Positions 2,693-64,000 of a stretch of DNA of 64,000 bases are shown here, one piece after another (position 1 is the stretch's first letter; every line of letters begins with the position of its first letter). Both the position numbers and the translations under genes were made by a program. The stretch covers positions 39,742,001 through 39,806,000 of the forward strand of contig OZ024748.1 in NCBI GenBank assembly GCA_964016885.1, given 5' to 3'. The DNA comes from Eledone cirrhosa (Eukaryota). Under the pieces are notes generated by a model. The model was not told where the DNA came from and did no database searches. It worked only from the letters and a program-made list of their open reading frames with translations.

Positions 2693-2694
2693 CC

Positions 2695-2724
2695 ATGTAC
2701 TTATACCTATATACATACATATAT

Positions 2725-2761
<37 letters not shown>

Positions 2762-2851
2762 AAAAATGGAGTGGTTCGTTGTGGCACATGAGTTACATAT
2801 GAATAAAATTAGTCCTTCATCAATGATCTTCCATTCATTGGTATTTCAGCG

Positions 2852-2922
<71 letters not shown>

Positions 2923-3366
2923 GACGTAAAATAAGAAAATTTTAAAAATAAAAAATTAACTTACTTACTAAAATTTTCACACACAAATCTTAGTAAGTAA
3001 GTTAATTTTTAATTTTTAAAATTTTCTTGTTTTACGTCTTTCATATAATTGTTCTGTTCTGCATTCACCTGCATAGAGCCACATAGGTACTAAGACATAA
3101 CTTATATATTTGCGAGCATGAGTGTACATCTGTACACATATGTTGGTAGATGTACTAATTCTCTCTCTCTATATATATATATAGGAACAAGTAAGACCCC
3201 GACGGCTGAGCTCAAGCCGTTTCGACGGCTAATTAGCCGTCGAAACGGCTTGAGCTCAGCCGTCGGGGTCTTACTTGTTCCTATTACCCACTCTACTACC
3301 CTAAGTATTGAGTACTTTGGTGCGTTATGGTCCACCTGGTTCCTTACCACATTTCCTTCGTTGTAT

Positions 3367-3460
<94 letters not shown>

Positions 3461-3550
3461 CGCTGAAATACCAATGAATGGAAGATCATTGATGAAGGAC
3501 TAATTTTATTCATATGTAACTAATGTGCGACCACGAATCACTCCATTTTT

Positions 3551-3639
<89 letters not shown>

Positions 3640-3670
3640 ATATATGTATGTATATAGGTATAAGTACATA
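2695..3670. repeat. Nested foldback (inverted-repeat) structure embedded in (TA)n tracts
   Basis: ~2695-2855 is the reverse complement of ~3457-3670. Internal hairpin at ~2915-3046 and perfect palindrome at 3181-3284. Confidence 0.8.
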
Positions 3671-3925
3671 GGTTGGTGGTGGTGTTGTAAAGTGTGAAAT
3701 CCCACAAAGGTGTCAAATCAAATAATACAGACAGTTACATAAATGTAAACGAATAATACATATATATGTGTGTGTGTGTATATGTATATGTATATATTAT
3801 ATTATACGTATTCATTACGCACACTAATATATAGGTGTCTGTGTAGGGTATATAAAAACAGGGATAGGTGTGGAACACATTTATTAATACGTTGTAAAAA
3901 AGAATCTCTGTAATTATGTAATTAT

Positions 3926-6385
3926 TTAGATAGGGTTAGGGTTAGGGTTAGGGTTAGGGTTAGGGTTAGGGTTACAGTTAGGGTTAGAGTTAGAGTTAGG
4001 GTTATAGTTATGTTTAGAGTTAGGGTTAGAGTTAGGGTTACAGTTAGGGTTAGAGTTAGAGTTAGGGTTATAGTTATGTTTAGAGTTAGGGTTAGAGTTA
4101 GGGTTTGAGTTAGGGTTAGAGTTAGATTTAGAGTTAGGTTTAGAGTTAGGTTTAGAGTTAGGCTTAGAGTTAGGGTTAGAGTTAGGGTTAGAGTTAGATT
4201 TAGAGTTAGGTTTAGAGTTAGGGTTTGAGTTAGGGTTAGAGTTAGATTTAAAGTTAGGTTTAGAGTTAGGGTTAGAGTTAGTGTTAGAGTTCGGGTTTGA
4301 GTTAGGGTTAGAGTTAGGTTTAGAATTAGGCTTAGAGTTCGGGTTTGAGTTAGGGTTAGAGTTAGGTTTGGAATTAAGCTTAGAATTAGAGGTGGGGTGA
4401 GAGTTAGAGGTAGGGTTAGAGTTGGGTTTAGAGTTAGGGCTGGGGTTGTAGTTATGGTTAGATTTAGGGATAGAGTTAAGCTTAGATTTAGCCTTAGAGT
4501 TAGAGGTAGGGTTAGAGTTATGTTTAGTGTTAGGGTTAAGGTTAGGGTTAAGGTTAGGGTTAGAGTTAGCGTTAGGGTTAGAGTTACGGTTAGAGTAAGG
4601 GTTAGGGTTAGGGTTAGGGTTAGGGTTAGGGTTACGGTTAGAGTTAGGGTTAGAGTTAGCTTTAGAGTTAGGGCTAGGGTTAGTGTTAGGGTTACAGTTA
4701 CGGTTATAGTTAGGTTTAGAGTTAGAGGTAGGGTTAGTGTAAGACCAGTTCATAGGTAAGGTTACGTTTAGTATCAGATGGCGTTGATTAGTTAGAAATA
4801 GGGTGAGGGTTCATTAGAGTTAGGGGTTTCATTAGGGTTAGGGTTAGAGTTGGGGTTATAGTCAGAGTTAAGGGTACAGTTTGACGTAGGGTTAGAGTTA
4901 GGGTTAGTGTTAGGTATAGAGTTAGCGATAGAGTTAGGGTTAGAGTTAGGGTTAGAGTTTGGGTTAGAGTTAGGGATAGAGTTAGGGTTAGAGGTACGGT
5001 TAGAGTTAGGGTTAGAGTTAGGGTTAGAATTAGGGTTAGAGTTAGGGTTAGAGCTAGGGCTAGAGTTGGGCTTAGGGTTAGAGGTAGGGTTAGAGTTGGG
5101 TTTAGAGATAGGGCTGGGGTTAGAGTTAGGTTTAGACTTAGAGGTAGGGTTAGAGTTATGGTTAGAGTTAGGATTAGAGTTAGGGTTAGAGTTATGTTTA
5201 GAGTTTGGGTTAGGGTTAGGGTTAGGGTTAGGGTTAGAATTAAACTTAAATTTAGAGGTAGGGTTAGAGTTATGGTTAGGGTTATATTCAGAGTTAAGGG
5301 TAGAGTTACAGGTAGGGATAGAGTTTGGGTTAGAGTTAGGGTTAGAGTTAGGGTTAGGGTTAGGGTTACAGTTAGGGTTAGAATTAGGGTTAGAGTTAGG
5401 GTTAGGGTTAGAGTTATGGTTAGAATTAGGCTTTGAGTTAGAGGTAGGGTTAGAATTCGGGTTAGAGTTAGGGTTAGGGTTAGAGTTCGGGTTAGAGTTA
5501 TGTTTAGAGTTAGAAGTAGTGTTAGGGTTAGGTTTAGAATTAGGGTTAGATTTAGGGTTAGTTTTAGGGTTAGAGTTAGGGTTAGAGTTAGGGTTACAGT
5601 TAGGGTTAGAATTAGGTTTAGAATTATACTTAGAGTTAGAGGTAGGGTTTGAGTTAGGTTTAGAGTTATGGTTAGGGTTAGAGTTAGGGTTAGAGTTATG
5701 TTTAGAGTTAGGGTTAGAGTTAGTGTTAGGGTTAGGGTTAGGGTTAGAATTATGGTTAGAGTTAGGTTTAGAATTATTGTTAGGGTTAGAGTTAAGGTTA
5801 GAGTTAGAGGTAGAGTTAGATTTAAGGTTAGAGTTATGTTTAGAATTAGGCTTTGAGTTAGAGGTAGGGTTAGAGTTAAAGTTAGAGTTAGGGTTAGGGT
5901 TAGAGTTAGGGTTAGAGTTAGGTTTAGTGTTAGGGTTAGAGTTAGGGCTAGAGTTAGAGGTAGGGTTAGATTTAAGGTTAGAGTTATGTTTAGAATTAGG
6001 CTTAGAGTTAGAGGTAGGGTTAGAGTTAGGGTTAGAGTTAGGGTTAGGGTTAGTGTTGGGGTTAGAGTTAGGGTTAGAGTTAGGTTTAGAGTTAGGGTTA
6101 GAGTTAGGGCTAGAGTTAGAGTTAGAGTAAGGTTTAGAATTAGGCTTAGAGTTAGAGGTAGGTTTAGAGTTAGAGGTAGGTTTAGAGTTAGAGGTAGGTT
6201 TAGAGTTAGATTTAGAGTTAGGGTTAGACGTAGGGTTAGAGTTAGGTTTAGAGTTAGAGTTAGGGTTAGGGTTAGAGTTAGGGTTAGGGTTACAGTTAGG
6301 GTTAGAGTTAGGGTTAAAGTTAGGTTTAGAATTAAACTTAAATTTAGAGGTAGGGTTAGAGTTAGGTTTAGAGTTAGCGTTAGAG
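3926..6385 (+). repeat. Interstitial degenerate telomere-like array (TTAGGG/TTAGAG)
   Basis: Hexamer array of TTAGGG, TTAGAG, TTAGGT and variants. Confidence 0.9.
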
Positions 6386-6534
6386 TATACTTATATATAC
6401 ATATATATATACACATATATATACATATACACACACATATATACACATATACATATACATATATCTATATGTATCTCTCTCTCTATATATATATATACAA
6501 AAGTTTAAGCAAAGAATCGCTGCTTATTACTATA

Positions 6535-6797
<263 letters not shown>

Positions 6798-7324
6798 TTA
6801 TTAAAATAACAGATTAAAGTTTAAGCAAAGAATCGCTGCTTTCACCTTTAACGGGATCTTCTAAAACTAACAAGGTCAATCTGTAAACGCAGAAGTGGAT
6901 ATTTCAAATTTATTTTAATAAATATTTGCTCTAGTCTTATATATTTGATATATACTTATCCTTATCGAGCCCTCTTTGGATTTTAGTCTTCAAATTTATT
7001 ATTATTACTATATATATATATATATATAGCCTGTTGACCTAAGTGGCAACGGGAATATTTCAACTTTGAAAAGAAGAATAAAGCTTCGAGGTGTTTTGAC
7101 TAGTTTAAGTAAACAGGTGAGACATATATGTCAACGAATCGCTATTATATAAGGTAAGGTGTGAAGTTAACTAACTATTATTAACAATGTAAAAGCAAAC
7201 GTATCCTGTTCGGTTTGTATCGGCAATAATAATAACTTCTGATTTAGGTACAAAATAATGATAGAAATAACAATAAGTTTTACTATAGGCACAAGACCAA
7301 CAGTATAAGAGGGGGGAGAGGCAA

Positions 7325-7630
7325 TTAAATCGACCCCAGTGTATTACTGGTACTTTATTTTATCTACCCTGTAAGGATGAAAGGTTAAGTTAACCTCGGC
7401 AGGATTTGAACTCAGGATGTAAAGGGCCGTAACTCTATGTTGATGAGCTTTCCGACGCTGTACCAATTCTGTCAGCACAATTGTAGGCACAATGTCAGTA
7501 ATTTGGTGGAAGGGAAAGTCGATGATTAAATCGACCCAGTGCATGACTGGTACTTTATTTTATCGGCCCTGTAAGGATGAAAGGCAAAGTTAACCTTGGC
7601 GGGATTTGAACTCAGTTTGTAAAGGACCGT
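7325..7630 (-). mobile_element. Two tandem SINE fragments (tRNA-derived family)
   Basis: Motif tggtactttattttatc..aaggatgaaaggcaaagttaacctcggc.ggatttgaactcag occurs twice; B-box-like gagttcaaatcc on the minus strand. Same family at 22890, 27470, 31960 and 61790. Confidence 0.75.
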
Positions 7631-8144
7631 AAAAAATAAGGATTTCTTTATTACATTCATTTATTTCGTGGATCGTGGGTTGTCTCCCCTTCCCGCTTCG
7701 AGGCGCTATGATACTTCCTCAGCCAAAAACTGCTGGAATTTCAAATTTGGCAGTCATTCGAGGCGAGAGAGAGTAACTTTACGGACACGATTTTTGACTG
7801 CGGTAAGAAATTATTTTCTTATATCAAAGTTTAACGGGCTTCCACTGATGATTTATAAGTGCCACCTAAATATATTCGTACATGAATATATATTAGGCTT
7901 CTACATAAACTGGAAACATTCTCCCAACTTGTAGAAAACTTATAATGAAACAATTGTTTGGAAAGAGATATACTTTAACTTTAATTATATCTCATAAAAT
8001 AATACAACTGGTTTTTCCACATTATACATATTGTTAGCACCCCAAACACTTAAATTGGGTTTATATTTAAATATAACCTACTGTTTGTTGAGTGAGATGG
8101 TTACCAGTCAGAGTTTAGCTTTAAACTATCTCTGTTATTGTATT

Positions 8145-8229
<85 letters not shown>

Positions 8230-8440
8230 ATATTTGGGGAGGGTCATATTTGCGTAATATTGCCAGAATTAATAACAGAACACACTCACTGTTTGGTTGG
8301 TTTTCGCTTCTCGCTGTCTTTTATATATATATATCTGCGATCTAACTTACTCGGTCCTCAATGTTGCCAGTGACTGACCGGCGGTCAAAAATAATACAGA
8401 TACAATATAGACACAAACACATATATATAGTTTACATAAT

Positions 8441-8484
8441 TTACATAAATCTTTCGTTGCACATCTGCAACATCGTCAGTGGTG
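8441..8484 (-). ncRNA. Minimal hammerhead-ribozyme-like motif in the Penelope 3' region
   Basis: Minus strand reads cca-CUGACGA-u-guugca-gaug-ugcaac-GAAA-gauuua-ug. Stem II is perfect; stems I and III are weak. Confidence 0.5.
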
Positions 8485-8747
8485 TTATATTCATTGTTCC
8501 TCCTGTTGTGTTGTATGTCTACGCCATTTTTTTTGTTCAGTCTGTCTATATATTTATTTATTTATTTGCTTGTTTGTTTATCTTATTTTATTTTGTCTTC
8601 TTTGCGCATGCGTTTGCGTATGTGTATAGTGTTATGTGTGATGTGTGACTAGTGTGTATAGTGTTGTGTCTGCTGGGTGACTAGTGTGTGTTTATGTGCT
8701 TGTGTATGTATTTGTTTATCTTATTTTATTTTATTTTATTTACTTAT

Positions 8748-11700
8748 TTATACTTCTCTTAGGTCAGTGTTGTTTGTTTGGGTGTTGTTGTTGTTGCACT
8801 CATTCTTTCTGTTTAGCTTTGGTCTTCTAATTTCTATTTCACTGGCCTCTCTGATTTGCCTATCTGCTGGGTCATTCCTATGTTTAGATATTATTCTAAT
8901 TTCTATGTTGTCTATGTTACCGTCATGTTGTTGTCTAGCATGTTCGTATAGTACTGACCCGTTTTTTCGTCCTTTTAGTTCCCCCCAGTGTTGGTCTATC
9001 CTTTCACCTATGCTACGAGCTGTCTCACCTATGTATGTTGTTGTCATGTTTCTGCAAGTACCCTCTGTACATCTTATGCTATAGACTACGTTTCTAGTAT
9101 TACAGTTTATCCGGGGGTTCACCTTACATATGATACATTTCCTATTGGTACAGTGGGTTTTCTTAAAAGGGTAGGTTTTGCTGATCAGGGATTTTATGGT
9201 GGTTCCTGGCTTTTCTACCACCTTTATTTTTAAGTGGGTCTTTCTCAGGGCCTTTCTACACTGGTTAGCTAATTTCCCTCCAGGGGTGGCGTCCACAAAT
9301 ATGACACTCTGATATCTCTGGTTGTCGTACCATGATGTGGCCTTCCCTATCTTATGTCTAGCCCTATCTAAGCTATTCCATGATTTGCTCCTGTATAGTG
9401 GGCAAATTCCTTTCATGTCCAGTTCTATGAGGGTCTTATACTTTTCCATGGCTCCTTCGTATACTCTGACTCTGTCTCTTTGGTTGTAGCCAGAGAACTG
9501 CATGCGGTTGATGAAGTGTTGGATGTGTCCTTCCATTTCTGTTGGGTCGCACATTCTGGACACATTCTTCATCACTCGTACCAAATCTGCGATCAGAATA
9601 TTAAACTTAGCACTACTGGACATCGCTGAGTTTTTGAGTATTAGGTATTTGGAGGCCATGGGTTTAGCATAGTGTGAGTGGAGAATTTGGGCTCTCTCGT
9701 CTATAGTGTTAATCCAGAGTTCTGTGTCTAATACAGGTAGTCTATTGTTAGGGTGTTTGGGAGGGAAGTCTATAGTTACAGTTATACTCTGGTGTATGGA
9801 ATTAGCTATCTGCTGGATGCTTTCCATCGTGCTACGTTCTAAATCAAACTTGTTAGTGCTCTCTAGTGGGGGTGTTCTTATAACTATATTGATATCGTCT
9901 ACATAACGAGAGTACATGATGAGGTCTATGGAGCTTTCATTAAGGAGATCTTTAAGTCTCCTTTCCCACCATACCATGAAAAGGTTGGCAACATCACCAG
10001 CTATGCTGACGCCGATGGCTGCTCCCTCATTTTGGGTGTAGATTTTCTCATTGAACTTAAATATGTGGCCCTTTAGGGTAGTTTTGATACTAGCCCCTAT
10101 TGCATGTGCGACCATTTTTCTTACCTGATCAGTGTTTTGGGGGGTCCGTATAGCTTTGGTCCACCCAATCCACCTTCCTATGGGAGTCTTTTTAGCCATT
10201 GAGGTTATGGTGGGGGGTCTACCTCTTATAGGTCTACTAGGGCAGAAACATCTAAGGTCATGGCTGTCTAGGTAGTCAGTGTCGTAGGTAAGTCTAAGTA
10301 GGAGGCCCAGTTCGTCTGTGTCGACGTCGCAGAACTTCACCCCACTCTCAATGATCATCTCCACACATCTTTTCACAGCAAAATCAATGTTAATGGATGG
10401 GTACAGTGACACCACATCCATGCTGCCTATTATGCAGTTGGATAGGCTCCTGTTTTTGTTGCACTCACTGATTCTGCTGAGGAGGTCCTCTGTACTTTCA
10501 CATACATCTGGGGACATCTTGATTATGGGGCGTATAACCATTGAGAGGAAGTAGGAGATCCTGTAGTTGCTAGCTATATTAGCTCCGCATACGGGTCTTG
10601 TTGGTGGTCCTGTTGTCGGGTCGTCGACTGTCTTGTGGTCTTTGCGGAGCCCATACAAGGGTGGTATGCCATTGTTAGACGCCTGGAAGTTGTTGGCAGT
10701 GTGTCTGCCTGGCTTTCGGATGTCAGTCCACATCATCATGTGAGCGTTGAGGATTTTTTCTCTCCCATCGTGTGTTAGTTGTGCAACTTCGCTCGTGTTG
10801 GTGATGTGGGGTTGCATTGCCTCGATGTAGTTCGGCATGCTATCTATTGACATCCTACCAGACTTATCTGTGGGTAGACACACTACCTCACCATCCCTTG
10901 TGCGCTGCTTGAGGCTAACCAAGCCTTCTACAGGTTTTATCCCAAGTTGTTGGGCCTCTGGTCTGCTCTGTCTCATAGTGTACCTGTCTACTACTTGTCT
11001 AATCTTATTTCTAGCTATGGTGAACTGTGCCTCCGTCTCGTCATCTATTTGCTGTGGTATGCAAACTCTTTTATTAAAGGGTAACCTCGTAGGATAGATA
11101 TTACCCATCTTATATGTTTTGTCAGCTGGGTTGAAAAATAGTTTCTCTAAGGGGTTGTCGTTATTTCTATCGTCATAGTTGTGTGTGTTGCTATTATTGT
11201 TATCATGGTGGTTGTTGTTGTTTCTATCATTAGCATTAATATTATTATTGTTATGATTGCTAGATGTATTGTTGTTTACTTCACCGTTATTGTTGTTGTT
11301 GTTACTGCTATTTCTACCATTGTGGTTGTTACTATTATTATGTTTCTTGTTTTTGTTGATGTTGCTACATGTACTATTTCCATTATTACCACTGTGGTTA
11401 TTGTTGTTGTTGTTGTTCGTATTGTTACCGTTATTACTACTGTGGTCACTGTTGCTGTGTCTGTGGTTAACGTTTCTATTATTATTATTATTGTGGTTGT
11501 TGTTGTTCTGTCTATCGCTAGTATTATTGCCATTATCACTATTTCTCACTTTCCTGCCATTGTTATGGCTGTTATTTCTATACCCAGAGTTATTGTTTAT
11601 ATTACTACTACCGTTATTATTGTTGTTGTTGTTTACCTTTGCATTCCAACGTATTTTTGTGAAACACTTTTCCAGCTCCGTTTTGCATTCCATAGGGTTA

Positions 11701-12290
11701 ATCTTTTTGTAGATGGCAAATTTTGGTGGTAACTTTAGGATTTGTTGTTCTTGTTCACTGATTAAAGTGTTCCCATAGATATTTACTGTGTGGTCATTGG
11801 TAAATTCTTCCGGTAGTTTTACATCACTCATACGGATGTTGTCGATGTTATCTGGGTATTTTTGAGAATATTCGATTTTCCTTTCTTGTAGTTTTTTCTT
11901 ATTCATCCATTCTAATTTCTTCTTGAAATGCCTACAGCATTCGTTTTGAGCATATTTCGTTTCGCGTCGGATGACGCTCATGAAGTCATCTCTCTCGTTT
12001 GCTGTGATGAGATTTCGGATTTCCTTACCGTTGATGCGTTTTTGTCTGTAGAGTGCGTTGACTTTTGTGTATGTTGTTCTTTTCATATTAACTGTTATTG
12101 TGTGTTTTAGCCGTTCAGCTTGTGTTTTGTTCAATAATAAATTATTTACTTGTTTTGATATGTTTGTTGTGTATGTTTTGGAGGAAACACAGTGTTTTAA
12201 GAAGCGGATTTGTTCTGTTGTTATTGTAGTTTTTATATAACAGAAAACAGTGTCTTTCAATAACCTTTCAGCTATTCTGTATGTAAACAC
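8748..12290 (-). CDS. Penelope-like retroelement ORF: reverse transcriptase plus GIY-YIG endonuclease, with a long Asn-rich insert
   Basis: 1180-aa uninterrupted ORF with TDKSG, LYGLRKDHK, RPVC, SMDVVSLYPSI, GAAIG, YSRYVDD, a Cys cluster CTNRKCIIC..NC, and NVVYSIRC..YIGET..R...H. Confidence 0.92.
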   Translation of the reverse strand: MFTYRIAERLLKDTVFCYIKTTITTEQIRFLKHCVSSKTYTTNISKQVNNLLLNKTQAERLKHTITVNMKRTTYTKVNALYRQKRINGKEIRNLITANERDDFMSVIRRETKYAQNECCRHFKKKLEWMNKKKLQERKIEYSQKYPDNIDNIRMSDVKLPEEFTNDHTVNIYGNTLISEQEQQILKLPPKFAIYKKINPMECKTELEKCFTKIRWNAKVNNNNNNNGSSNINNNSGYRNNSHNNGRKVRNSDNGNNTSDRQNNNNHNNNNNRNVNHRHSNSDHSSNNGNNTNNNNNNNHSGNNGNSTCSNINKNKKHNNSNNHNGRNSSNNNNNNGEVNNNTSSNHNNNNINANDRNNNNHHDNNNSNTHNYDDRNNDNPLEKLFFNPADKTYKMGNIYPTRLPFNKRVCIPQQIDDETEAQFTIARNKIRQVVDRYTMRQSRPEAQQLGIKPVEGLVSLKQRTRDGEVVCLPTDKSGRMSIDSMPNYIEAMQPHITNTSEVAQLTHDGREKILNAHMMMWTDIRKPGRHTANNFQASNNGIPPLYGLRKDHKTVDDPTTGPPTRPVCGANIASNYRISYFLSMVIRPIIKMSPDVCESTEDLLSRISECNKNRSLSNCIIGSMDVVSLYPSINIDFAVKRCVEMIIESGVKFCDVDTDELGLLLRLTYDTDYLDSHDLRCFCPSRPIRGRPPTITSMAKKTPIGRWIGWTKAIRTPQNTDQVRKMVAHAIGASIKTTLKGHIFKFNEKIYTQNEGAAIGVSIAGDVANLFMVWWERRLKDLLNESSIDLIMYSRYVDDINIVIRTPPLESTNKFDLERSTMESIQQIANSIHQSITVTIDFPPKHPNNRLPVLDTELWINTIDERAQILHSHYAKPMASKYLILKNSAMSSSAKFNILIADLVRVMKNVSRMCDPTEMEGHIQHFINRMQFSGYNQRDRVRVYEGAMEKYKTLIELDMKGICPLYRSKSWNSLDRARHKIGKATSWYDNQRYQSVIFVDATPGGKLANQCRKALRKTHLKIKVVEKPGTTIKSLISKTYPFKKTHCTNRKCIICKVNPRINCNTRNVVYSIRCTEGTCRNMTTTYIGETARSIGERIDQHWGELKGRKNGSVLYEHARQQHDGNIDNIEIRIISKHRNDPADRQIREASEIEIRRPKLNRKNECNNNNTQTNNTDLREV

Positions 12291-12293
12291 ACA

Positions 12294-12912
12294 GTTTGTC
12301 TGTGTGTTTACATACAGAATAGCTGGCCACTCACAGTAAAGTGATCAGTGAAAAAAAACTTGGTACATCTACATATGTATACGTGTGTGTATTCATATAC
12401 ATACTAGTATTTCAGTATACATATATGGATGTACATCTTTGACTTAATTGTTTGAGCGTCAGTCATACAAAAGTGAGTTACAAACGAAACGAAATTTAAT
12501 TTCGTTTCGTTATTTGTTTTTATCGTCTCCGTTGAACCGGTACTTACTCACACTCTATGCAAGTTGGTCTGCCCACTACTAATTTTCATAGAAAAAGCAT
12601 ATAGCGATATGTGCTTTTACGATTCTCTAGAGAGGCCGGAAGATAGGTAAATATTGCTGATGAGTTGTAACAACAACGAAACTAGTTCAATATTCCTTGT
12701 CTGGCTTTCTGGAGAATAGAGGAAAGGTGTTTCCTCAAAAACCAGTATGACTCTAAAAACCGGTTTGTCTGTGTGTTTACATACAGAATAGCTGGCCACT
12801 CACAGTAAAGTGATCAGTGAAAAAACACTTGGTACATCTACATATGTATACGTGTGTGTATTCATATACATACTAGTATTTCAGTATACATATATGGATG
12901 TACATCTTTGAC

Positions 12913-12918
<6 letters not shown>
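12294..12918. repeat. ~155-bp direct repeat pair (12294-12449 and 12762-12918); a hairpin (12269-12325) joins it to the Penelope 5' end
   Basis: gtttgtctgtgtgtttacatacagaatagctggcc...ctttgacttaatt occurs twice. 26-bp perfect inverted arms at 12269-12294 and 12300-12325. Confidence 0.8.
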
Positions 12919-12939
<21 letters not shown>

Positions 12940-12943
<4 letters not shown>

Positions 12944-14015
12944 CTATAAAGCTAACGGCCGTATGTATGTAACAAACTTTTCGCCAAACGGCTGGACCAA
13001 ACAGAACAAATTTGCACTATAGATGTAACTTTTTCCAAGTAAAAAAGTGAGGGTATTTTTGTCTACTGAATTTTGTTAAAAGATTAAAGACATTATTTAA
13101 ATATTCACTTCTTTAAAATTTCAAATGTCAACACTTCCTGTTATACGACATTCCTCACTTTTTTTCGTCGCACAACATTCCCCTCTTTTTCTTAGTCTGT
13201 CTTTTTAGATAGATATAGGGCTATAACGTAGCGTCTTTATATGTCTCTGTAGGTCTGGCTGTCTGTATTAGATAACGTTTTTCGAAATATTTACTTCTGG
13301 GTTCACAGATTGATTTTTTTTAGTTTCAGAAGTTAAGGGTGAAAGCCTTTGCTTAAACATTGTTATTTTAATATATATATTCGTGTACAGATATTTTGCA
13401 TACACAAAAACAAAAACCTATTTATTTCACTAAAGCACAGACGGCTTATCGTCATTGTTACTGTTCGAGGTTAGAGGACCACAGTCTTTCCAAGATCTGA
13501 GAACCATCAATAGCCAACAATGTTCCACTTACCGTTTGGCTTGCCAGATGCGTGGTTTGTTACACAATGACACCTATTGGCACCTCACCCTACAAGAAGC
13601 AGCAACTACTAAAATCCCTTCTCAGCTGCGAAAACCTTTTGCTATTATGCTGCACAACTGTGATCTCGCCACCCCGAAAGTCTAGCTGAGGACATCCTCC
13701 ACCGCACACGCAGACACAATCCGAGCGTAACATACGATGTCGTTTTCAATGAGGCGCTCATCTGTCTTGAAAACAGTCTCCTGGAGATTGATGGTAGGCT
13801 TCTAAGTCACTACAGCTTACCTGCTCCTGGCAGGAGTGTCCTGAGGTCAATGTCTACAGAGCTTCTCCGTGAGACGAGCTACGAGATCAGTGCTTCTCCA
13901 GTGGTCAATTGTATGTAGGATGCTCTAGGGTGAGCTCGCCAAACAATCTCTTCATCTTTGCTCCGGAGGGCTGAACAAAAAATATTGTATACTCTGAGGC
14001 TCTAACAATGTAATT
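12940..14015 (+). mobile_element. Internally deleted Helitron remnant
   Basis: VRGPQSFQDLRTIN..TYRLAC..RGLL..D..W..TL.EA (Rep-Hel linker) and FSSGQLYVGCSRV..TKNIVYSEAL (helicase C-terminus, with a stop) at ~13893-14010. Confidence 0.8.
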
Positions 14016-14522
14016 TAAATATTTTCTGTTACTTGGAATTTTCATTTTGGTTGTACAAATTATTGTTTGTTAAAAAATATGTTCTCTGTTCAGCCTTTAT
14101 TGTTGTAACTCTCAATTATCTTTAACGTACTGGCTGCTGAACTGGGGAATCCTAAAACTATTCAAACCCAACATCAGAGCACGTTAACCATTTGGATAGT
14201 GAAAGAAAAAGAGAAAAATTTCAAATCTTTTATGAGGGATATGCAAATGAAGTAGAAGGGTAGACTGAAAATATCGTTATATTTAGACGCCAGGTACATT
14301 TAAATAATTATTAGGATACTTTATAAAAGAAGATGAAGCAGAAGAAGGAAGAAAGATAGGCTCATATTATTATTAGGGTGCAAGTAGATTTAAAAATTTA
14401 AAATGTGTTGAAGTGGTAGAATACTAAACCAAAAAGTTTTCAATATATAACCAAATCATGAGTTATAATATATATATAATGTATATAATTATTTTTTAAG
14501 GAATTAAGGTTGTAGGTACACT

Positions 14523-14635
14523 TTAGCTTATTATATTGCAACCAGTCAGTTTAGCTTATTATATTTAAACCAGTCAATTTAGCTTATTATATGGAAACCA
14601 GTCAATTTAGCTTATTATATTGCAACCAGTCAATT
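14523..14635. repeat. 28-bp minisatellite, about 4 copies
   Basis: tttagcttattatattgcaaccagtcaa repeated. Confidence 0.85.
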
Positions 14636-14739
14636 ATATACATATTTATATAAATAGATAAAAATATATACATGCTGTTATTAATTCAAATATAATTTAA
14701 GGGTTACGAAGGATATGTGTTTACATTTTCAATATATAG

Positions 14740-14810
14740 TTAAGAAAAAAAAGTCCAAGATGGCACGGATGGGGTGGTCAGGAAGGAGACGTCCATACCA
14801 TAATGCCAAT
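14740..14810 (+). CDS. Candidate small upstream exon of the tryptophanase-like gene
   Basis: tag| acceptor at 14739; open frame LRKKSPRWHGWGGQEGDVHTIMP; ATG at 14803; phase-2 donor AT|GTAAGA at 14810/14811, compatible with the acceptor at 15368 (gives MPISDFIEPF). Confidence 0.5.
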
Positions 14811-14909
14811 GTAAGACAGTAGCTATTGTCATTTTATCGTGTCAGTTGATATTACGTTAAATATAATTCCGGTTTTATCTGTGATTTACTGATATAGCTT
14901 ACGTCAATT

Positions 14910-15300
14910 GTTTCTTCTTCGTCCAGTTATTTCTGAGAAGGTCGTGGGGTCAGAGTACTCCAACACTCCTTCCAGCAAGTCAGGTCAGAAGCAACCGTTT
15001 CCAACTGATCCGGCTGGATCTCCCAAGCATGACCAGCCAAGCTCATGGATCTTAGCAAACCATCTTACTCAGGGTGGGTCGATCCCTGGGTCTCTTGTCG
15101 GTTTGTTTTGCCCGTAAAATCTGTCCGGTGATTCTTTCCTGAGACAATCTAACCACATGTCCATAGTATCAGAGCTGTGATCTCTCAATTCGGAGAAGTA
15201 GCGGCTCTACCTGGAGTAACTCTCTGATCTCAGAACTACGCACTCTATCGAGTAACATTACTCCAAAGACCCTTCAGAGGAATCCCATTTCGACCGCTTG
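14910..15300 (-). mobile_element. RTE-like LINE 3' fragment (intronic in the proposed model)
   Basis: Similar to 18585-18960; same family as the fragment encoding LTYGHESCVMTE. Confidence 0.7.
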
Positions 15301-15368
15301 TATTGTTTCTATTTACGAAATAACACAACTGAGGATTTTAATAGTGTCAAATTTTCGTTTCCTTTCAG

Positions 15369-16865
15369 TTCCGACTTTATCGAACCATTTAAAATACATA
15401 TTGTAGAGAACATAAAGATCAATAACCGTAACGACAGATTAATTGCTCTCGAGAAAGCTGACTACAACATCTTTAAATTACAACCTGAAGATGTCATGAT
15501 CGATTTCCTTACAGATGCTGGCACTAATGCTTTCAGTCTTGAACAAAACGCAAGAATATGGATGGGTGATGAAAGTTATGCCGGATCTACTAGTTATGAA
15601 ACTTTGAAAGACACGGCAACATATATTTCTGGTTTTGAAAACATTCTGCCAGTTTTTTCTGAATGTATCAGCGAAGAGATTGTCGCTTCTTATTTCACAA
15701 AAGCTGGAGATAAGGTTATTGGGAATACTTTTACTTATTCACTTGAGAAGCATATAAAGGATCTTCATGCTGAAGCGATTTCTTTGTTAGATTGGTCAGA
15801 TAATAATTTTGCAGGAAATCTAGATGTTCAAGCACTCAAAAACTTATTGGCAGAAAATGATAAAAAATCAATTTCCTTTCTTATAATGAATGTACCAGCA
15901 AAAAGTAGTGGTGGCCAACCAGTTAGTATGTCAAACATGAAAGCAGTTTCTGATCTCTGTCGCGAACATTCGATTCCGATATACATCGAAAGTAGTATGT
16001 ATGGTGAGAACTGTTGGCTCAATAAAATGTACGAAGAGGCTTACTTCAATAAATCGTTAGTTGAGATATCGCAAGAAATGTTTTCTTTTTTCGATGGCTG
16101 CATTATTTCTGCTAAAAGAGATGGTAGAAGTGAGATTGGAAGTGTCATTTGTCTTCAAGACAAAGAAATTACTCGAAAATTGGGCACTGTTATTACTCTT
16201 AAAGCAGGTTTCATAACTTATGGTGGGATGGCTGGCCGAGATATGGAAATGGTAGCGGATGGCATGCGAGGTGCTTTGGATGAACAACTGCAAGACTATC
16301 GACAAAAACAATTGGCATTTTTCAAAAGATCCCTGAAGGAATTTGGTGTTCCGATTGTGGAGCCAGTCGGTTGTAATACCATCTTCATTGATGCCGAAAA
16401 TGCTTTTCCTAACTGTAAACACGCGTTTTATCCAGCCTGGTCTTTATCTTGTGCTGTTTATATCGTCGGGGGTATCCGATGCGCAGAGTTTGGTCAAGTT
16501 ACTCGTCCAACAAGTAGCTTACCCACTAATCATTTTCTGAAAGACCGAGAATTACTAAAGCTTGAGATACCTCGTTTCATCTATACGACTTGTCACATTT
16601 TCTATGTTGCCTATGTTTCGCTCAGCTTATTTCACATGAAATGCTTTCTGGAATGAAACTTATTGCCTGCTCCGAAGACCAAATAAAAATCGTGAAAATA
16701 AAAATGAAGCCAAATCATTCTCTGGAATATGACGATATCCAACTCCTTCCGGTACAAGACTGTAAACACATTCACTTCTTTAAAAACATATCTAATCAAA
16801 GAGTTATGAAAAGAAATTCAATCGCCGAGGTATCTTCTATATGGTCAGTCGACATTCCTTCTTAA
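15369..16865 (+). CDS. Tryptophanase/tyrosine phenol-lyase family domain A: lacks the PLP lysine, retains the trans-acting catalytic Tyr; 1-bp frameshift at ~16617
   Basis: EPFKI, DFLTDAGT, GDESYAGS, GGQPVSM.NM, SAKRD (K->R), TYGGMAGRDME, PIVEPVG, IPRFIYT. Acceptor tttcctttcag at 15368. Homology continues in the shifted frame (FAQLISHEMLSGMKL) to TAA at 16865. Confidence 0.88.
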
Positions 16866-17060
16866 AAAGGGGACAAACACGTTAGATAATGTAATCGTAG
16901 ACACAAAAAAGACGTGGTAGTCATGATTGGAACGTCCCTGATCATATAATTGCTCTGTCAATGTTGACCTGAACTTAAACAACAGCAACAACAACACAGA
17001 GATTTTTTTTTTGTTGCACCCAAACAGGGTTCTGTAAATTCTAGATTGTACATTCTTTTA

Positions 17061-17203
17061 TTCTTTTACTGGTTTCAGTCATTAGACTGTGGCCATGCTG
17101 GGGCACTGTTCTTTTACTGGTTTCAGTCATTAGACTGTGGCCATGCTGGGGCAGTGGTCTTTTACTGGATTCAGTGATTCTACTGTGGCCATGCTAGGGC
17201 ACC
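17061..17203. repeat. ~47-bp tandem repeat x3, possibly SINE-derived
   Basis: ttcttttactggtttcagtcattagactgtggccatgctggggca repeated. Confidence 0.7.
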
Positions 17204-17417
17204 AATTGATTGTTAGTTTATTTTTTTTAATTGGTTTTATTACCAACAATTAAACTATTGAACATGATTTTGAATAGAAAGTAGGGGAAAACATTGACAG
17301 TCTTGTCAAATATAGTTTTAATATTATGTTAACAAACCATGAAATAAAATATCTTTGGAAACTTAAATATATTTCTTGTGATGTTCTTTTTACAATTATT
17401 TCACAAATATATAATTC

Positions 17418-17682
17418 ATATGAAACATTGTGATGTATGTTTCACCAATATATAATTAATATCAAACATTGTGATGTATGTTACACCAATATATAATTAA
17501 TATCAAACATTGTGATGTATGTTTCACTAATATATAATTAATATCAAACATTGTGATGTATGTTACACCAATATAAAATTAATATGAAACATTGTGATGT
17601 ATGTTTCACCAATATATAATTAATATCAAACATTGTGATGTATGTTACACCAATATATAATTAATATCAAACATTGTGATGT
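17418..17682. repeat. 41-bp minisatellite, about 6.5 copies
   Basis: atatcaaacattgtgatgtatgttacaccaatatataatta repeated. Confidence 0.9.
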
Positions 17683-18584
17683 GGTTGTGATAATTCGGGG
17701 AAAGATGGTACAACGAATATTAGATAAACTAAGGTGAAAAGATACAACAAATCAGCATTTTAAACTTTCGTCTTATATTTCTTGATGTTTTGAGGTGAGA
17801 AACTTTTTTCAAAAGAAAGAAATGGAGTCTGGTCTTGTCAACGCCCAAAGAAATGTTGATAAACGATTTATTTACATCAACTTATTATTGATGGTGACAT
17901 GCTTTTGTTTCACTTTAAAAAAATATTATAATAAGGTGACATACTAATATAAATATTATTTTAAAAATAAAAAACAAATCTTGAAACATCTTATGACTGT
18001 GGCAGTGGCAAGGTTTATAGAGTTAAGAAGCCTCACAACCATCTGATTTCTGGTTCCTTTAGACTACATGGCATCTTAAAGAAGCGTCTTTCTGCCATAG
18101 GTTCGAGTCAACAAAACGGACAGTTTGCCCTTTTCGGCTTGGCGGGCAGCAGGGCCTGGACTGGTGGTGGAATGCACCAGGTTGGCACTTGCAATTAATT
18201 GTAATATAACTGATAGATGTTGTTTCAATTCTGTGCCATTAATTGTAGATCAACGACAACATTGTTGCAGTAGTTATTTCAATTATGTGCCATTAATAAT
18301 CTGTGTTACGAACACTACATAAATAGTCTACAGGTGTTACCTTGATTTCACCAGATGGAAATATCAAAATCAAAATTGATTATGTAATTGTTCCAAACAA
18401 TATTCTCGAAATGGTGAAAAACTGCCATGTGTATATTTCTACAGATATTGGTCTAGAATATTTCAACTTAGAGACTGGAAAACACAAACGTTATTATCAT
18501 AAATGTACTGTGATTGTGTGAGGCTTAATTATTAAAGATTGTAAAATCCATTCCCTGTGAATTATATCCAAGAATTTTCTTTTT

Positions 18585-19380
18585 CTTCCTTCACTTATTC
18601 CTGAGAAGGTCGTGGGGGAAGAGTCTTCAAACACTCCTTCTAGTAGGTCCTGTCAGAAGCAATCATCTCCAACTGATTTGGCTGGATCCCCAAGCGAGAC
18701 CTGCCAAGCTTATGGATGTTATCCAACTATCTTGCTCAGGGTCTACTCCTGGGTCTCCTGCTGGTTGGTTTTGCCAATAAAATCTGTCCAGTATTTCCTT
18801 GGACATTCTAGCCATATAATATGTAATATCAGAGCTATGATTTCTCAATTCGGAGAAGTATCAGTTCTACCAGGAGTGATTAAGAAGTCTCCAAGCTACA
18901 CACACTATCGAGTAATGATACTCCAAATACCCTTTTGGAGGAACCCCATTTTGGCCACTTGTATTTGCGATTGTATTCTTTCAGTCATTACACAAGATTC
19001 ATGACCATAGGTAAGGGTTGGCACGAAAACCGAATTGAAGATAGTGAGTTTGGTGTTTACACCTACCTCCCTTCTTCTGATTACCAAATGCCAAAGCTGT
19101 CACATTACTGCAGCAGCTCCTGCAATTATTGCACTTAATTCGGCCTCCTGCCTTCCATCACTCGTGACCATGGCCCTGAGATACTTGAACTTCTCTACCA
19201 ACTTCAGTAGAACTCCTTTCGCATGTAGAATGCACTGCGCAGGCTTCCTTTAGAAGACGAGTGTCTCAGTTTTCACAGCACTGAATTTCATTCCAGCCAT
19301 GCAGCACTCTGCATCAAACCTATCAAGTGCAAGTCAGAGATCACCTTTTGTTGAGTTTGTAACACCATGTTGTCTGCAAA
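18585..19380 (-). mobile_element. RTE-like LINE 3' fragment
   Basis: KLTIFNSVFVPTLTYGHESCVMTERIQSQIQVAKMGFL, plus FADNM and EKFKYL remnants. Confidence 0.8.
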
Positions 19381-19469
19381 TTCCAGCCACAAATTGCTGG
19401 CCATGTGCCTAAATTAGAAAACCTTATTCCTGCAAAAGGTCCTGTTAATCCTTAATTATTATTAAATAT

Positions 19470-19625
19470 AACATATATACAAACTGGAGCTGTGTCAGGG
19501 ACCAGTCCGCAAACATATATACAAACTGGAGCTGTGTCAGGGACCAGTCCGCAAACATATATACAAACTGGAGCTGTGTAAGGGACCAGTCCGCAAACAT
19601 ATATACAAACTGGAGCTATGTCAGT
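19470..19625. repeat. 42-bp minisatellite, about 3.5 copies
   Basis: acatatatacaaactggagctgtgtcagggaccagtccgcaa repeated. Confidence 0.85.
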
Positions 19626-20789
19626 GACAATGTCTGCAAACAATGAGTTGAAAATTTTAACACCAAGAAATATATGATAAATAAAAACTACAGTTAACAG
19701 ATTTTTGTGTTTTGAATTACTAAAGTGACTCGTTGCCACAGTTATGACCAGTCATGATCTTGTCGATTGAATACTACACTAGGTTTTGGTCTGTGATCCT
19801 CTAACCAAGGAGTGCTCACAGTTTGCTGAATGGACAATACTACTTACACGCCATCAATGGACTTACACACATCCCCGGGGTTTTGTTATATTATTTTGTG
19901 TTGGGTAACACACCTCCACCACTCAAACACTTATCTTAAAGGCCCGAGGGCCCATTTGACGGGAAAACGCACACACTGACACCTTAACTCAAATACCCAA
20001 CCCTACATGGAGCCCCTTGTTGGCCTACATGGCAGGTGTTTGCACGCACAGACTCGGGGACCCAGATTCTCAACGGGACAACGGCACATATAGAGTTCGA
20101 TACGAGCTGACTACTTGCTCTACACATGGATGTGTATATACCAAAACATACACTATTTAGACGATACAGATGTTACAATTCAATCGATACACGTATAGCA
20201 GAACGTTGAAGGGAATTTACTTGCGTGTGTATAGTGTTGTGGTTGACCCAATTTTTTTCTAATTTACATCGTGAAAATTGAGATTTGACCAATATAACGT
20301 TTGTTGTTTTGTAACCTAACTTTTGGTGCATACTGTGTTGCTGTGTATATTTTTTTTTCTCTGACCTCGCGTCGGTGTGTGTGAGTGTGTGTGCACTCAA
20401 TAACACTAATTGTGACGGACCAAAATTCTACAGATCTGGTGCTGAGATTAGACCTGTCCAGCGTCTTTTACAGCTATTGAGAGATAGAGACTTGATAGAT
20501 TTATGACCCTGACTGAAGACAATAGCAGTTGTCGTGTTTTGGCTGCTGATTATTCATATGGGGAACAAAACTCCAGTGAGTGAACATCGTTAGTTTTTCC
20601 TCCCTCATATCAAAGATTTCAAGACATTTCATTATTCACCTGAGATCAGTGATAATCGATCATGACCACACGATCGATCCCTTATTGAAACATGTGTCGT
20701 GATTAAAATGATTGGAAATGTATACCATGCCTTCGGATCTTTATTTTGATATATATATATAAAACTGAATTTACATTTTTTTTTTCCAG

Positions 20790-22179
20790 TCTCCAAGCAA
20801 TGGAACCTTACAGGATTAAGGTATTTTATCCAGTCAATTTAATCCCCAAGTCTGACCGTATTGCATGTCTAAAAGCTGCCAACTACAACCCCTTTCTACT
20901 TAAATCGAAAGACATATTTATAGATTTGCTAACAGATTCTGGTACAGGAAGTCAAAGCAGTGCCCAGTGGTCGGCTATGACTAAAGCCGGCTATTCAACT
21001 ATTAATTCCGAATACGTTAAGGAATTTGTACGTACAATTCAACACATTACCAATTTCAAACATGTATTTCCAGTTCATCAAGGTCGAGGAGCCGAAGGTT
21101 TGTTGGCAAAACTCCTACTGAATAAAGAGAGTGTTGTACTGAGTAATTCTCTGTTTGACACAACACGAGCACACGTTGAGTCATCTGGTGCAATTGGAAT
21201 AGATTTGGCAACAAAGTCTTCAAAATTCTTAGGTGATGCCGATGTGGAAAAATTTGAAGAAACACTGGATGAATATGGTTCTAGAGTTCATCTTGTAATA
21301 ATAACCTGCACCAATAATGTGGTAGCCGGAGCTCCTGTGAGCATGCAAAATATAGAAATCATAACAAAATTATGTCGAAACAAGAATATCCCAGTTATAA
21401 TGGACGCATGCCGTTTTGTTGAAAATGCTTATTTTATCAAGACCTTAGACGAAAAATATTCTAAACACACAATCTTAGATATTGCCAGCGAAATGTTTTC
21501 TTATTTTGATGGTGCAACTATGTCTTTAAAGAAAGATGGTATGAGCAATGAAGGTGGGTTTATAGCTTTCAACAACGACAAATGGGCCACCAAAATATTT
21601 GACATAATCGAATATAAAAGTGGTTATTCAACTTACGGGGGAATAACTGGATCAAATCTTGTAGCATGTACTGTCGGAATTTCTGAGGCTATGAACGAAA
21701 ATTACCTCCGATCAAGAATCTATCAGGCTAAATTACTGGCTGATTTCTTGGAAGATAATAATATTCCCGTATTTAAACCAGTAGGGGCCCATGCCGTCTA
21801 CGTGAAAGCAAACAAAGTCTTGCCACACCTTGATTTCTTGAAGTATCCAGCATGGTCCCTTAATTGTGCCGTATATATCGAAGGTGGTATTCGATGTGCA
21901 GAAATTGGCAATATAATGTTTGGTGAAAATTCAGATGGAACAAAACAAATTCATCCCTTTGAATATGTGCGTTTGGCTTTACCCAGAAGAACCTATACGG
22001 TCAACCATCTGCATTTTGTGGCCAAAACTTTTGGTTTTGTTGCCAAAAAAGCCCATTTAATCCACGGAATGGAAATTGTCAAATCTTCGCATCTCCTAAG
22101 ACATTTCACAATTTGGATGAGACCATTAAATGAATACCACCTTGAAAAGAATAATAATCAGAAAAAAATAAACTGTTGA
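20790..22179 (+). CDS. tnaA: Tryptophanase (tryptophan indole-lyase)-like domain B: PLP site intact, GDEAY catalytic-Tyr motif lost
   Basis: MEPYRIK, YNPFLL, DLLTDSGT, HQGRGAE, FDTTR, TNN, DACRFVENAYFIK, MSLKKD (Lys at 21532), GAHAV, EIG, RLALPRRTYT, LRHFT. Strong acceptor t(10)ccag at 20789; ATG at 20800. Confidence 0.93.
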
Positions 22180-34779: not shown

Positions 34780-37700
34780 TTTGCATTGTTTCTCAAGGAT
34801 CAATTTCCCCCTCGTCCTTCTGCATATGAAAGTCTGCTGTCCAGGTTGGTGGTTTGCGACTTCTTTGCGATCTCCGCAGTGTTGGGGTGGCACTTTGGGT
34901 TTCCTCTTCCTCGGAGTCCGTTGACACAGTGATTCTACGGACATCCAGGACATGACGTGGTACTCCGTCCAAGGACACATTGTTCTGGGAATTTACGGCC
35001 GTCACCGTTCCCCTTCCCCATTGAGATGTGCAACGTGCATATGGGGGCTTAACCCAGACTTCATCGCCCACCTGCACGAATGCACTCTCTCTCCCCACTG
35101 GCCGTTGTGATGGCGTGCACGGGTGCCGCCACTCGTATCTGAATACTGCTCTGTGTGGCACCGATTCCTCGACCTGTCTCACCCGAGGGGACATGTTGTA
35201 CCAGAACACTGCCTCCATTGGTGAGATATGGCCCCGCTCCGCCATTGCCTTGATCGTCCGGTGGTGTCGCTCTACAATTCCATTCCCGCTCGGCCTGTGC
35301 GCTGCTCTGAAGAAACGGTCCACCTTCCATCCATCGAGCATCACCCTCAGCGCCTCCGAGCGCAACGCTGCGCTGTTGTCCATCAGCAGTTCGTCCACAG
35401 GGCCCCGCTCCAAGAACACCTCTCTCAACGTCCGCATGATTTCCTCGGCCGTTCCAGTCTTCATCTCCCTCCTTATCGCCATCCGTCCTGATCCACAGTC
35501 GACCATCGAGAGGTACGTTCCCTGTCGGTAGTGCGTTACATCCACCGCCAATCGCTTCCAGTCGCGATCCACCGGGAGGCTTCCCGTTTCATGCACACCC
35601 GGGGCGGGATCAATGGACTGACATCGGACGCACCCTCTAACCACCCTTTGAACACTGTGTCTGTTAACGTCCGAGTCGATTCTCCTGGCTAGGAACAGGC
35701 TCCTATCCACTCCCATGTGGTGCATGTCATTCAACCCTTTCAGATCCGACTCGGTCAGCCGACACACGGCAGCTATCTCATCATCTACCTCCTCCGGTGC
35801 TTCCATCCAGGTTTTATTCACCCTAGTTAAGACGTCCGCCCTATTTTTCTCTGAGAGCACGAAAACTACACTCAGCTTCGGGTCGAACTCGGTGGCCAGC
35901 TCTCCTAAAGTTCCCAGGCGGCGCTTTATCAGCATCTCCGCCGCCCCTCTCGTTCGCACTCTCTTCTCACTGGTGAGCACTGATCTCACCCATCCGAGTA
36001 CAGTAGCCGAGTCGGTGCGTATCTCGATGGATGCGCATTCCCCACCTCAGGGCGAGGTTCACCCCTCTCAACACTGCGTCCAGTTCGGCTACATTGATGT
36101 GGTTGCAGTCGTCCTTCTTCCTAAGCCAGGCTGCATCCTCGACCTCAACACCTCCTATCTTCAACGTGACACCCAGCGCTATGCTGCTGGCATCGCACCA
36201 TACGGTCCCGCTCTGTGATTTGGGAACATACCACCCTCCCCACGAACTCCTGCATCGTGGCCATCTCTTGACATAGCTGCATGCCGTCCGGAGCCACCCA
36301 GCAATCGGGTAGTCACCCACCAACTTTCCACACACCGAGAAAAGCTCCCGCCTACTCATACTTGGGCCCAGTTCTGGAACTTCATTTCCCCTCTGGAATA
36401 CCAAGACGCCCGTCCTGTCTCGCCGTAGCCTAAGTCCCAGTACGGCTCCTCCCTCCAACGCTTCTGACGGTTTCGCAGCCAGTCCATACCCCTGTAAATG
36501 GCTCCTGACCTCCGCCGCCGACACCACAAACTCGTCCACTAGGATGTCGTCATGTAGGAGTTAGTGGCCCTCTTCATCTTGTCGGCCTTTCCCAGAATGG
36601 CCTTGAGGACCACCGCCATGATCTTCGGTGCGGAGCTCAGCCCGAAACCGAGCCTGGTCAGGCAATGTGTCCGGCCCTTATACCTGACCAGCTGATACTG
36701 CCAGAGCTTCTCATCTATATGCAATTGCAAGTATGCCGACTTTAGATCTACGATTGCGTCTCCACTCACGCAGGGTTTCCCCCACAGACATCCGTGACCT
36801 CGCCACTCGTGTGGCATGACACGTGCTCGTTCAGTTCCCGAAGGTCCAGCACCGGCCTCACCTTGTTCTTCGTGGGTTGCGCCACCGCCATTAACGGCAA
36901 TACTCTGCACTTCACCTCCTCTTTCCAGGGAAGCAGTATGCCCTCCTCAATCCATCTCTCTACCTCTCGCTCGAACTCGCCCCTAATGTTTCCCTTCAAT
37001 GTGTGTTGATAGCAGCCCACTTTGGTCTTCAGTGTTGGTGGTTCTCTCTTCCAGTACCACTCAACAACCCATCGCTGCCTATCGAACACGGCCTTGAAGT
37101 CTTTGTCCTGCACAGTGTAAGCGGGGTATTTCTCCTCGTGGGCCTTCTGGTTCTCCTGTCGCGTACTCACAGCGCATACCGATGCAGCGGCGCCAAACGA
37201 CACACCGACGTTGTTCACTGTGACAACTCCTAGACGGCGAATTGCGCCATGCCCATAACCACGCCGATCCCATCCACCACGCTGTCTACTACGATGGCAG
37301 AAAGCCTTATTTTCCTTCCCCGTACCGCTATTTCCATCTCGCTGCGATCTCGGCATTCAATTTTCGTGCCATCGACTGCCCTTATGCTGCTCTTCCCTCT
37401 TCACCTCTGCGCCACCCCCGCGATCACCAGTGTCGTCGTACAACCCGTGTCCACGAGGGCTCGCTGTGGCTTTCCCCTCACGAAGACACCCACCACGGAG
37501 AGCGCCTCTACTCGTAACGGGCAACTACCGGCGCAGTAGTTCCTCTTGGATCGTTTCCCTGGTCGCAGTTAGTAGCGATGTGGACTGGTCGCTTACACCG
37601 GTAGCATATTATTTCCGGCCTTGACTCTCTGCAGTCTCTAGCCATGTGCGGGCCCTGGCACCGAAAACAGCGACCTCTAAACGTTCGCGGGCGACCGCGT

Positions 37701-54328: not shown

Positions 54329-64000
<9,672 letters not shown>

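Follow-up and report, generated by a model that had tools for sequence, protein, structure and literature searches.

In bacteria, tryptophanase (TnaA, EC 4.1.99.1; structures 1AX4 and 2OQX) and tyrosine phenol-lyase (TPL, EC 4.1.99.2; structure 2EZ1) are homotetramers with four active sites, each of which is built by two subunits, and Glu69 has a role in K+ binding. Tyr74 of E. coli TnaA (Tyr71 in TPL) acts on the pyridoxal 5'-phosphate (PLP) of the neighbouring subunit, and the Y74F exchange nearly abolishes activity, which with S-(o-nitrophenyl)-L-cysteine (SOPC) drops from 45.7 U/mg in the wild type to 0.2 U/mg, about 0.4% (PMC2770544, available parts). The roles of Lys257, Tyr71, Arg381 and Thr124 in TPL are described in the available parts of PMC10170061. 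Here we analyse a stretch of 64,000 nucleotides of the Eledone cirrhosa genome (contig OZ024748.1, positions 39,742,001 to 39,806,000; referred to as the window), which carries two exons, A and B, encoding tryptophanase-like proteins. These share fold and family with the bacterial enzymes and the architecture of the two-subunit active site, but neither A nor B holds the full residue set.

The closest described system is very probably the same one. Work by Yuasa from 2023 (J Mol Evol 91:912, PMID 38007709) reportedly deals with two cephalopod tryptophan indole-lyases (TILs), named TIL-alpha and TIL-beta, that arose by duplication before octopus and squid diverged and carry disruptive substitutions in each, and the two are said to be inactive alone and to form a weakly active heterotetramer on co-expression. 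To judge from its title, the pair is very probably identical with octopod A and B; the core of the octopod split has thus very probably been published already, and the remark in an earlier note on this DNA that no description was known for this family very probably fails. The titles of this paper and of Phillips, Johnson and Kamath (2002) stand in the reference list of PMC12980246, the available parts of which cite the former in the references only, while PMC13342648 and PMC13237955, in their available parts, cite only another paper by Yuasa. According to its title, the study of 2002 demonstrated complementation in hybrid dimers of E. coli TnaA engineered with H463F and Y74F, that is, between laboratory point mutants and not within an evolved pair. 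An octopus tnaA is listed in PMC8537960, the available parts of which contain no active-site analysis, and the available parts of PMC4962025 concern a gastropod.

Comparable transitions from a fold-type I homodimer to a heterodimer with one lysine-bearing half are represented by SPT1/SPT2 of serine palmitoyltransferase (PMC6148460, available parts) and by glycine decarboxylase, which consists of alpha and beta subunits or of a fused P-protein (PMC7259800, available parts). Unlike the octopod pair, these belong to other families with other reactions, and they are encoded by separate genes or as a fused chain, not by alternative exons. The change from a homomer to an obligate heteromer by complementary loss has been shown experimentally for yeast Fcy1 (PMC10888846, available parts), and the octopod pair would be a clear example from nature of an enzyme taking this course. 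Possible additions to the published core are the single-gene architecture, the tandem array and the independent bacterial parallel described below.

We regard it as about 90% probable, on the strength of the sequences, that octopod tryptophan indole-lyase has turned from an ancestral homotetramer into an obligate A/B heteromer, in which B would bind PLP and A would lend the general acid and the loop. In the predicted catalytic dimer, B would hold PLP and tryptophan via K257, N185, D214, R217, R404 and His448, while Tyr71, Glu69 and the YGG loop would be contributed to this site by A, leaving one live and one dead site per dimer. Two such dimers would form an A2B2 tetramer with two sites, a stoichiometry that is likewise predicted. 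This split single-site heteromer, which the earlier note had proposed, is the best reading at hand and is favoured by the sequence-level tests, with assembly and activity as its predictions. As a default guess, it may serve low-rate indole production or tryptophan turnover.

Membership of both exons in the family is clear. The NCBIfam model PRK13238 (tryptophanase/TPL beta-eliminating lyase; cut-off 285 bits) was passed by A with 390.4 bits and by B with 495.1 bits. Both failed the canonical TnaA equivalogs TIGR02617 (cut-off 825.8 bits) and NF053783 (750 bits), with 272.6 and 326.9 bits for A and 348.5 and 390.5 bits for B, as well as the TPL equivalog TIGR02618 (cut-off 720.7 bits), with scores of 316.2 and 382 bits. 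The closest proteins to the two frames of the window are those of Octopus and Argonauta (70-83% identity), pointing to an octopod source; identity to the named octopod orthologues amounts to 70-77% for A and 80-83% for B. A and B group with the Octopus and Argonauta A and B proteins, in agreement with orthology to the cephalopod split TIL.

All motifs named in the earlier note were found at the codons it had assigned to them in A and B (Table 1; residue numbers are those of TPL, counted from a HMMER alignment to a solved TPL chain). The set of residues that a subunit contributes to its own site has been lost from A, which shows FSECISE (15655), Lys at the N185 position (15901), ESSM for DATR (15988), Asn at the H343 position (16375) and KLEIPRF with Lys at the R404 position. 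This set is present in B, with HQGRGAE including R100 (21085), N185 (21316), D214/R217 (21403/21412), H343 (21790), RLALPRR, and RHFT with its His at 22102. B also has the tryptophanase-type D124 and His448, but Tyr71 and Glu69 are missing from it, as is the GRDME portion of its YGG loop.

This reciprocal pattern was followed in a conservation alignment of 240 rows, with eight A sequences (an intact copy taken from the present genome, those of three Octopus species and of Argonauta, P0040, P0041 and P0350) and eight B sequences (the window, two Octopus species, Argonauta, P0204, P0205, P0325 and P0328). All eight A sequences keep GDESYAG and YGGM[AS]GR and have Arg for K257. HQGR, FDTT, N185, D214/R217, KKD, H343 and R404 are kept by all eight B sequences, and Tyr71 by none of them. 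The PLP lysine and the general-acid tyrosine therefore never occur in one polypeptide, with Lys only in B (8/8) and Tyr only in A (8/8). Since the pattern persists in all sixteen sequences, down to 43% (A) and 55% (B) identity, it is not a matter of chance. A lack of conservation of the motifs retained in A, which the earlier note had considered as a way in which its reading might fall, was not found, as they are kept in 8/8 A sequences. The Tyr of B at 20992, named there as a possible substitute acid, is ruled out by the other seven B sequences, which have His, His, His, Phe, Val, Phe and Phe at this position. The 75 intact near relatives share 127 invariant columns, of which A alone keeps 12, B alone 31 and both together 54; 6 are lost from both, and the remaining 24 are mixed. 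As annotations of the lysine-less A protein, 'tryptophanase 1' and 'tyrosine phenol-lyase-like' are misleading.

The specificity residues of B (FDTT, CAEIG, RHFT) are of the tryptophanase type and are also invariant in the 75 intact near relatives; the TPL-type Thr124, Arg381 and Phe448 are not matched, their places being taken by Asp, Ile and His. Asp at 124, the lack of Arg at 381 and His at 448 are marks of tryptophanases. It might be argued that B works alone, or mainly alone, on substrates with a good leaving group (serine, cysteine, S-substituted cysteines) and that A is a stabiliser or regulator: the whole PLP site is retained in B, Y74F TnaA still turns over SOPC at about 0.4% of the wild-type rate (PMC2770544, available parts), and a suspected regulatory role of lysine-less partners has been discussed for SPT1 (PMC6148460, available parts). 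For such substrates the claim of the earlier note that neither homo-oligomer should be active may indeed be too strong. We nevertheless consider an autonomous B quite unlikely, because a mere scaffold need not keep exactly Glu69/Tyr71 and YGGMxGR, as A does in 8/8 sequences while its same-subunit set is lost, and because B retains the tryptophanase-type specificity residues.

In RefSeq, A and B carry the isoform labels X1 and X2, respectively, both for O. bimaculoides (XP_014791032.1, XP_014791033.1) and for O. sinensis (XP_036366181.1, XP_029647098.2), and all four isoforms open with MDFSDL. In the present genome the leader exon starts with ATG and encodes MDFSD plus two bases (CT), followed by a GT donor; it is located 6.1-7.0 kb upstream of six of the ten full-length A copies. 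Joining it to the A acceptor gives MDFSDL-SDFIEPF, as in X1 of O. bimaculoides, and joining it to the B acceptor gives MDFSDL-LQAMEPY, as in X2. In the simplest reading, a single gene would end in either of two alternative last exons, A or B, to each of which the shared leader would be joined by splicing; we infer this from the genome together with the database models. The earlier note spoke of two paralogs and of domains, but A and B appear to be parts of one gene and not two paralogous genes or two domains of one chain. If so, both subunits would come from one transcription unit and would be linked and co-regulated. No literature was found on alternative last exons that yield both subunits of an enzyme, which is a weak negative. 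Inside the window the leader exon was sought in two ways and not found; in this unit it is missing upstream of 12885, where the homology of the intron remnant ends. The phase-2 acceptors in front of 15369 and 20790, the missing leader and a frameshift in A near 16615 are points beyond the earlier note.

Alternatively, A and B might be spliced into one two-domain chain, similar to single-chain glycine decarboxylase or to the tandem fusions that genuinely occur in bacteria, and an Argonauta gene model (P0001, 847 amino acids) does link B and A. In that model, however, B precedes A, is shortened by about 80 residues and is flanked, with A, by two other B models, and we regard it as a likely gene-model artefact in which the predictor linked neighbouring tandem units. 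Moreover, both in this genome and in the Octopus records A and B terminate in separate stop codons, and each has its own acceptor fitting the same leader, which makes a single chain very improbable and is in line with two separate subunits from alternative last exons.

A tree of 87 rows (leaving aside the window's A, the O. vulgaris A, P0328, 19 of the 36 fusions and the majority of those reference rows that were garbled or nearly identical) recovered an A clade and a B clade with support of 100 each. A and B are sisters with a value of 88 in the Shimodaira-Hasegawa-like approximate likelihood ratio test, and next to them stands, with 97, the enzyme of the chiton Liolophura (P0045), a single protein with every active-site motif intact. 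Within A as within B, the octopod sequences are set apart from a more distant group, so the duplication is older than that split. One intact ancestral exon, of the kind still intact in the chiton, may have been duplicated in tandem inside its gene.

A search of the genome assembly revealed 10 full-length A exons and 9 B exons inside 1.0 Mb, plus two inverted A fragments. Five of the ten units in this array are complete, with leader, open A and open B. Among the others, one has a stop in B, two combine a frameshifted B with the absence of the leader ATG, and one consists of A alone; the window's own unit has no leader and carries a 1-nucleotide deletion in A near 16615. In this copy the frame ends early at 16656, the natural end of exon A being at about 16860 (stop at 16863-16865 in the shifted frame). 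The deletion, which may be either real or a consensus error, is absent from the other nine full-length A copies, all of which are open to their natural end. The window's unit would accordingly be a leaderless, frameshifted extra copy within a recent tandem array. Array copies diverge by about 1% or less, and most of the distinct changes among them are non-synonymous (23 of 36 in A, 16 of 20 in B), with a rough ratio of non-synonymous to synonymous rates (dN/dS) of 0.46 for A and 1.1 for B; both observations indicate that the array is young and partly decaying, and part of the differences may be sequencing error. The roughly tenfold amplification may be connected with gene dosage, or the region may just be prone to duplication.

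The frameshifted and leaderless A of the window, together with the greater divergence of A from intact enzymes (37% identity to the chiton protein, as against 46% for B), would be expected if A were a decaying pseudogene and its retained motifs mere leftovers. Such an explanation fits the window's copy only. An open A frame is present in 9 of the 10 copies of this genome and in every other species seen, the A proteins of named octopods share 70-77% identity, and the same residues have been lost on both sides of a split of 43% identity, so that we attach almost no credence to general decay of A and retain the obligate heteromer.

The array extends on the contig from 39.12 to 40.13 Mb and consists of near-identical copies, with three inverted leader copies besides the two inverted A fragments. 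A segmental duplication with a period of 54.3 kb, of which about one is contained in the window, is evident from positions 1-8920, which recur at 54329-63392 with 90-98% identity. In Argonauta hians at least three B models are adjacent, and amplification may recur among octopods.

A corresponding division of labour was encountered in bacteria. The 38 longer homologues comprise 25 tandem double-domain proteins, 12 fusions of other kinds and the Argonauta model. Of 36 aligned fusion representatives, 30 have the reciprocal pattern; the six that deviate from it did not enter the counts. GDE[AT]YAG is present in 30/30 N-halves, which also keep the YGG loop, and K257 in 30/30 C-halves. The columns lost overlap with the octopod ones: among the 12 columns kept by A only, 4 are confined to the N-halves, among the 31 kept by B only, 13 are confined to the C-halves, and one is crossed; over the 127 columns octopod and fusion losses correlate with a Spearman rho of 0.42 (p-values 6e-4, 3e-5 and 8e-7, which are optimistic in that they assume independent columns). 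An origin of the octopod pair from bacterial fusions was rejected by the approximately unbiased test, whether A was placed with the N-halves (p 0.011) or B with the C-halves (p 1.6e-5). As judged at the residue level, the same split arose independently in the bacterial fusions, and this independent loss of overlapping columns permits a test of how repeatable the split is. The tandem TPL-type fusions, which come from uncultured bacteria (P0004, P0035, L052, L067, L073, L082, L090), resemble the octopod pair in having a lending N-half and a C-half with the PLP site, but differ in being one chain, in their tyrosine-type residues (FTTT, MERG, RFF) and in their position elsewhere in the tree.

A pattern scan of GTDB, among the matches listed, returned mostly intact enzymes. 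Flanks were available for 80 of 120 of these loci; they include at least eight reciprocal fusions, two of them cut by contig ends, and no split pair of separate genes was found among the 80. Hosts of the fusions are labelled Acidobacteria, Planctomycetota, Deltaproteobacteria, Chloroflexi, Nitrospiraceae and others. At least 12 loci, mostly from Bacteroidota, carry two neighbouring intact-looking genes of the family (L030, L034, L045, L048, L055, L057, L059, L062, L064, L070, L093, L108); these could be unsplit precursors or two specificities side by side. The fusions with other decay patterns (P0002, P0003, P0354, P0355, P0359, P0388), for example with Phe at Tyr71 in the N-half and a nearly intact C-half, are possible intermediate stages. 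In other bacterial proteins tryptophanase is fused to a prenyltransferase of the dimethylallyltryptophan synthase (DMATS) type or to a flavin-dependent oxidoreductase domain (P0022, P0023, P0025, P0027, P0029; P0020, P0033).

Several observations weigh against the reading as an obligate A/B heteromer. The isoform labels are RefSeq predictions, and support for A and B as sisters is moderate (88, in a quick tree without bootstrap). The aromatic residue of the YGG loop is retained in B (Tyr in 4/8, Phe in 4/8), and the split is not clean at this point. Variation among the B copies of the array, with its 16 of 20 non-synonymous changes, appears unconstrained. In the fusions, Lys occupies the K257 column in 4/30 N-halves and Tyr the Y71 column in about a quarter of the C-halves, and the 6/36 fusions with other patterns stand outside the column comparison. 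A more far-reaching proposal combines two elements, namely that one gene with duplicated alternative last exons supplies both subunits, their ratio being governed by splice-site or poly(A)-site choice, which would act as a tissue-level dial on tryptophan cleavage, and that the same split arose twice, the second time in the tyrosine-type bacterial fusions, so that the family would offer a natural replicate of the passage from homomer to heteromer. This would exceed what is reported for the work of 2023; taken as a whole, we regard the combination as speculative and rather unlikely.

Table 1. Features of the window and their coordinates (position 1 is the first nucleotide of the 64,000).
Feature	Position	Strand	Remarks
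Intron remnant	12885..15368	+	98% identity with the corresponding intron in a unit that has the leader; homology ends at 12885
Exon A pyrimidine tract and AG acceptor, phase 2	15336..15368	+	Fits leader MDFSD+CT
Exon A, putative tryptophanase-fold subunit lending Tyr71/Glu69 and YGG loops; PLP lysine absent	15369..16860	+	Profile match, alignment
GDESYAGS of A: Glu69 at 15571, general-acid Tyr71 (TAT) at 15577	15565..15588	+	Kept in 8/8 A sequences
Arg (AGA) replacing PLP lysine K257 in A	16117..16119	+	Arg in 8/8 A sequences
YGGMAGRDME loop retained in A	16219..16248	+	
1-nucleotide deletion in T-run, putting the last part of A out of frame	16612..16618	+	Private to the window's copy
Exon B pyrimidine tract and AG acceptor, phase 2	20761..20789	+	Fits the same leader as A
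Exon B, predicted PLP-binding subunit	20790..22179	+	R100, N185, D214, R217, K257, H343, R404 present
AGYSTINS of B: Thr 20998 at Tyr71 position, Tyr 20992 at Glu69 position	20986..21009	+	
PLP lysine (K257 equivalent, AAA) of B	21532..21534	+	
Penelope-like retroelement (by eye)	8748-12290	-	1180-amino-acid open frame; YVDD-like and C-terminal GIY-YIG-like motifs
Broken pol pieces resembling a long terminal repeat (LTR) retroelement	34793-37356	-	Weak integrase match below Pfam cut-off
Fragmented element resembling a long interspersed nuclear element (LINE), duplicated along with the unit	47-2845 and 53607-57140	-	Weak zf-RVT match

The window belongs to a 60.6-Mb contig of a 3.0-Gb genome, and simple repeats and retroelement pieces are abundant around the exons. 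Bacterial contamination as the source of the two exons was ruled out by the length of this contig, the animal repeats, the spliceosomal signals and a G+C content of 0.375 and 0.373 in the exons compared with 0.372 in the window. The Penelope-like frame, for which no Pfam or NCBIfam match was obtained at 0.001, is present in the window's unit and missing from the next copy, where a gap corresponds to 8921-12332. A frame for a PIF1-type helicase (Helitron-like) lies just upstream of one leaderless A copy (L018:3-1082) and may mark the event that removed the leader of that copy.

Some further relatives of B were noticed. P0206, P0327 and P0328 are B-type proteins with a further altered C-terminal part (VPNR, HL[MT]) that occur beside near-identical normal B proteins such as P0325, and they are possibly a third variant. 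P0375 and P0436 are stand-alone proteins of a B-like character, with the PLP lysine present, the Tyr71 motif absent and the YGG loop decayed.

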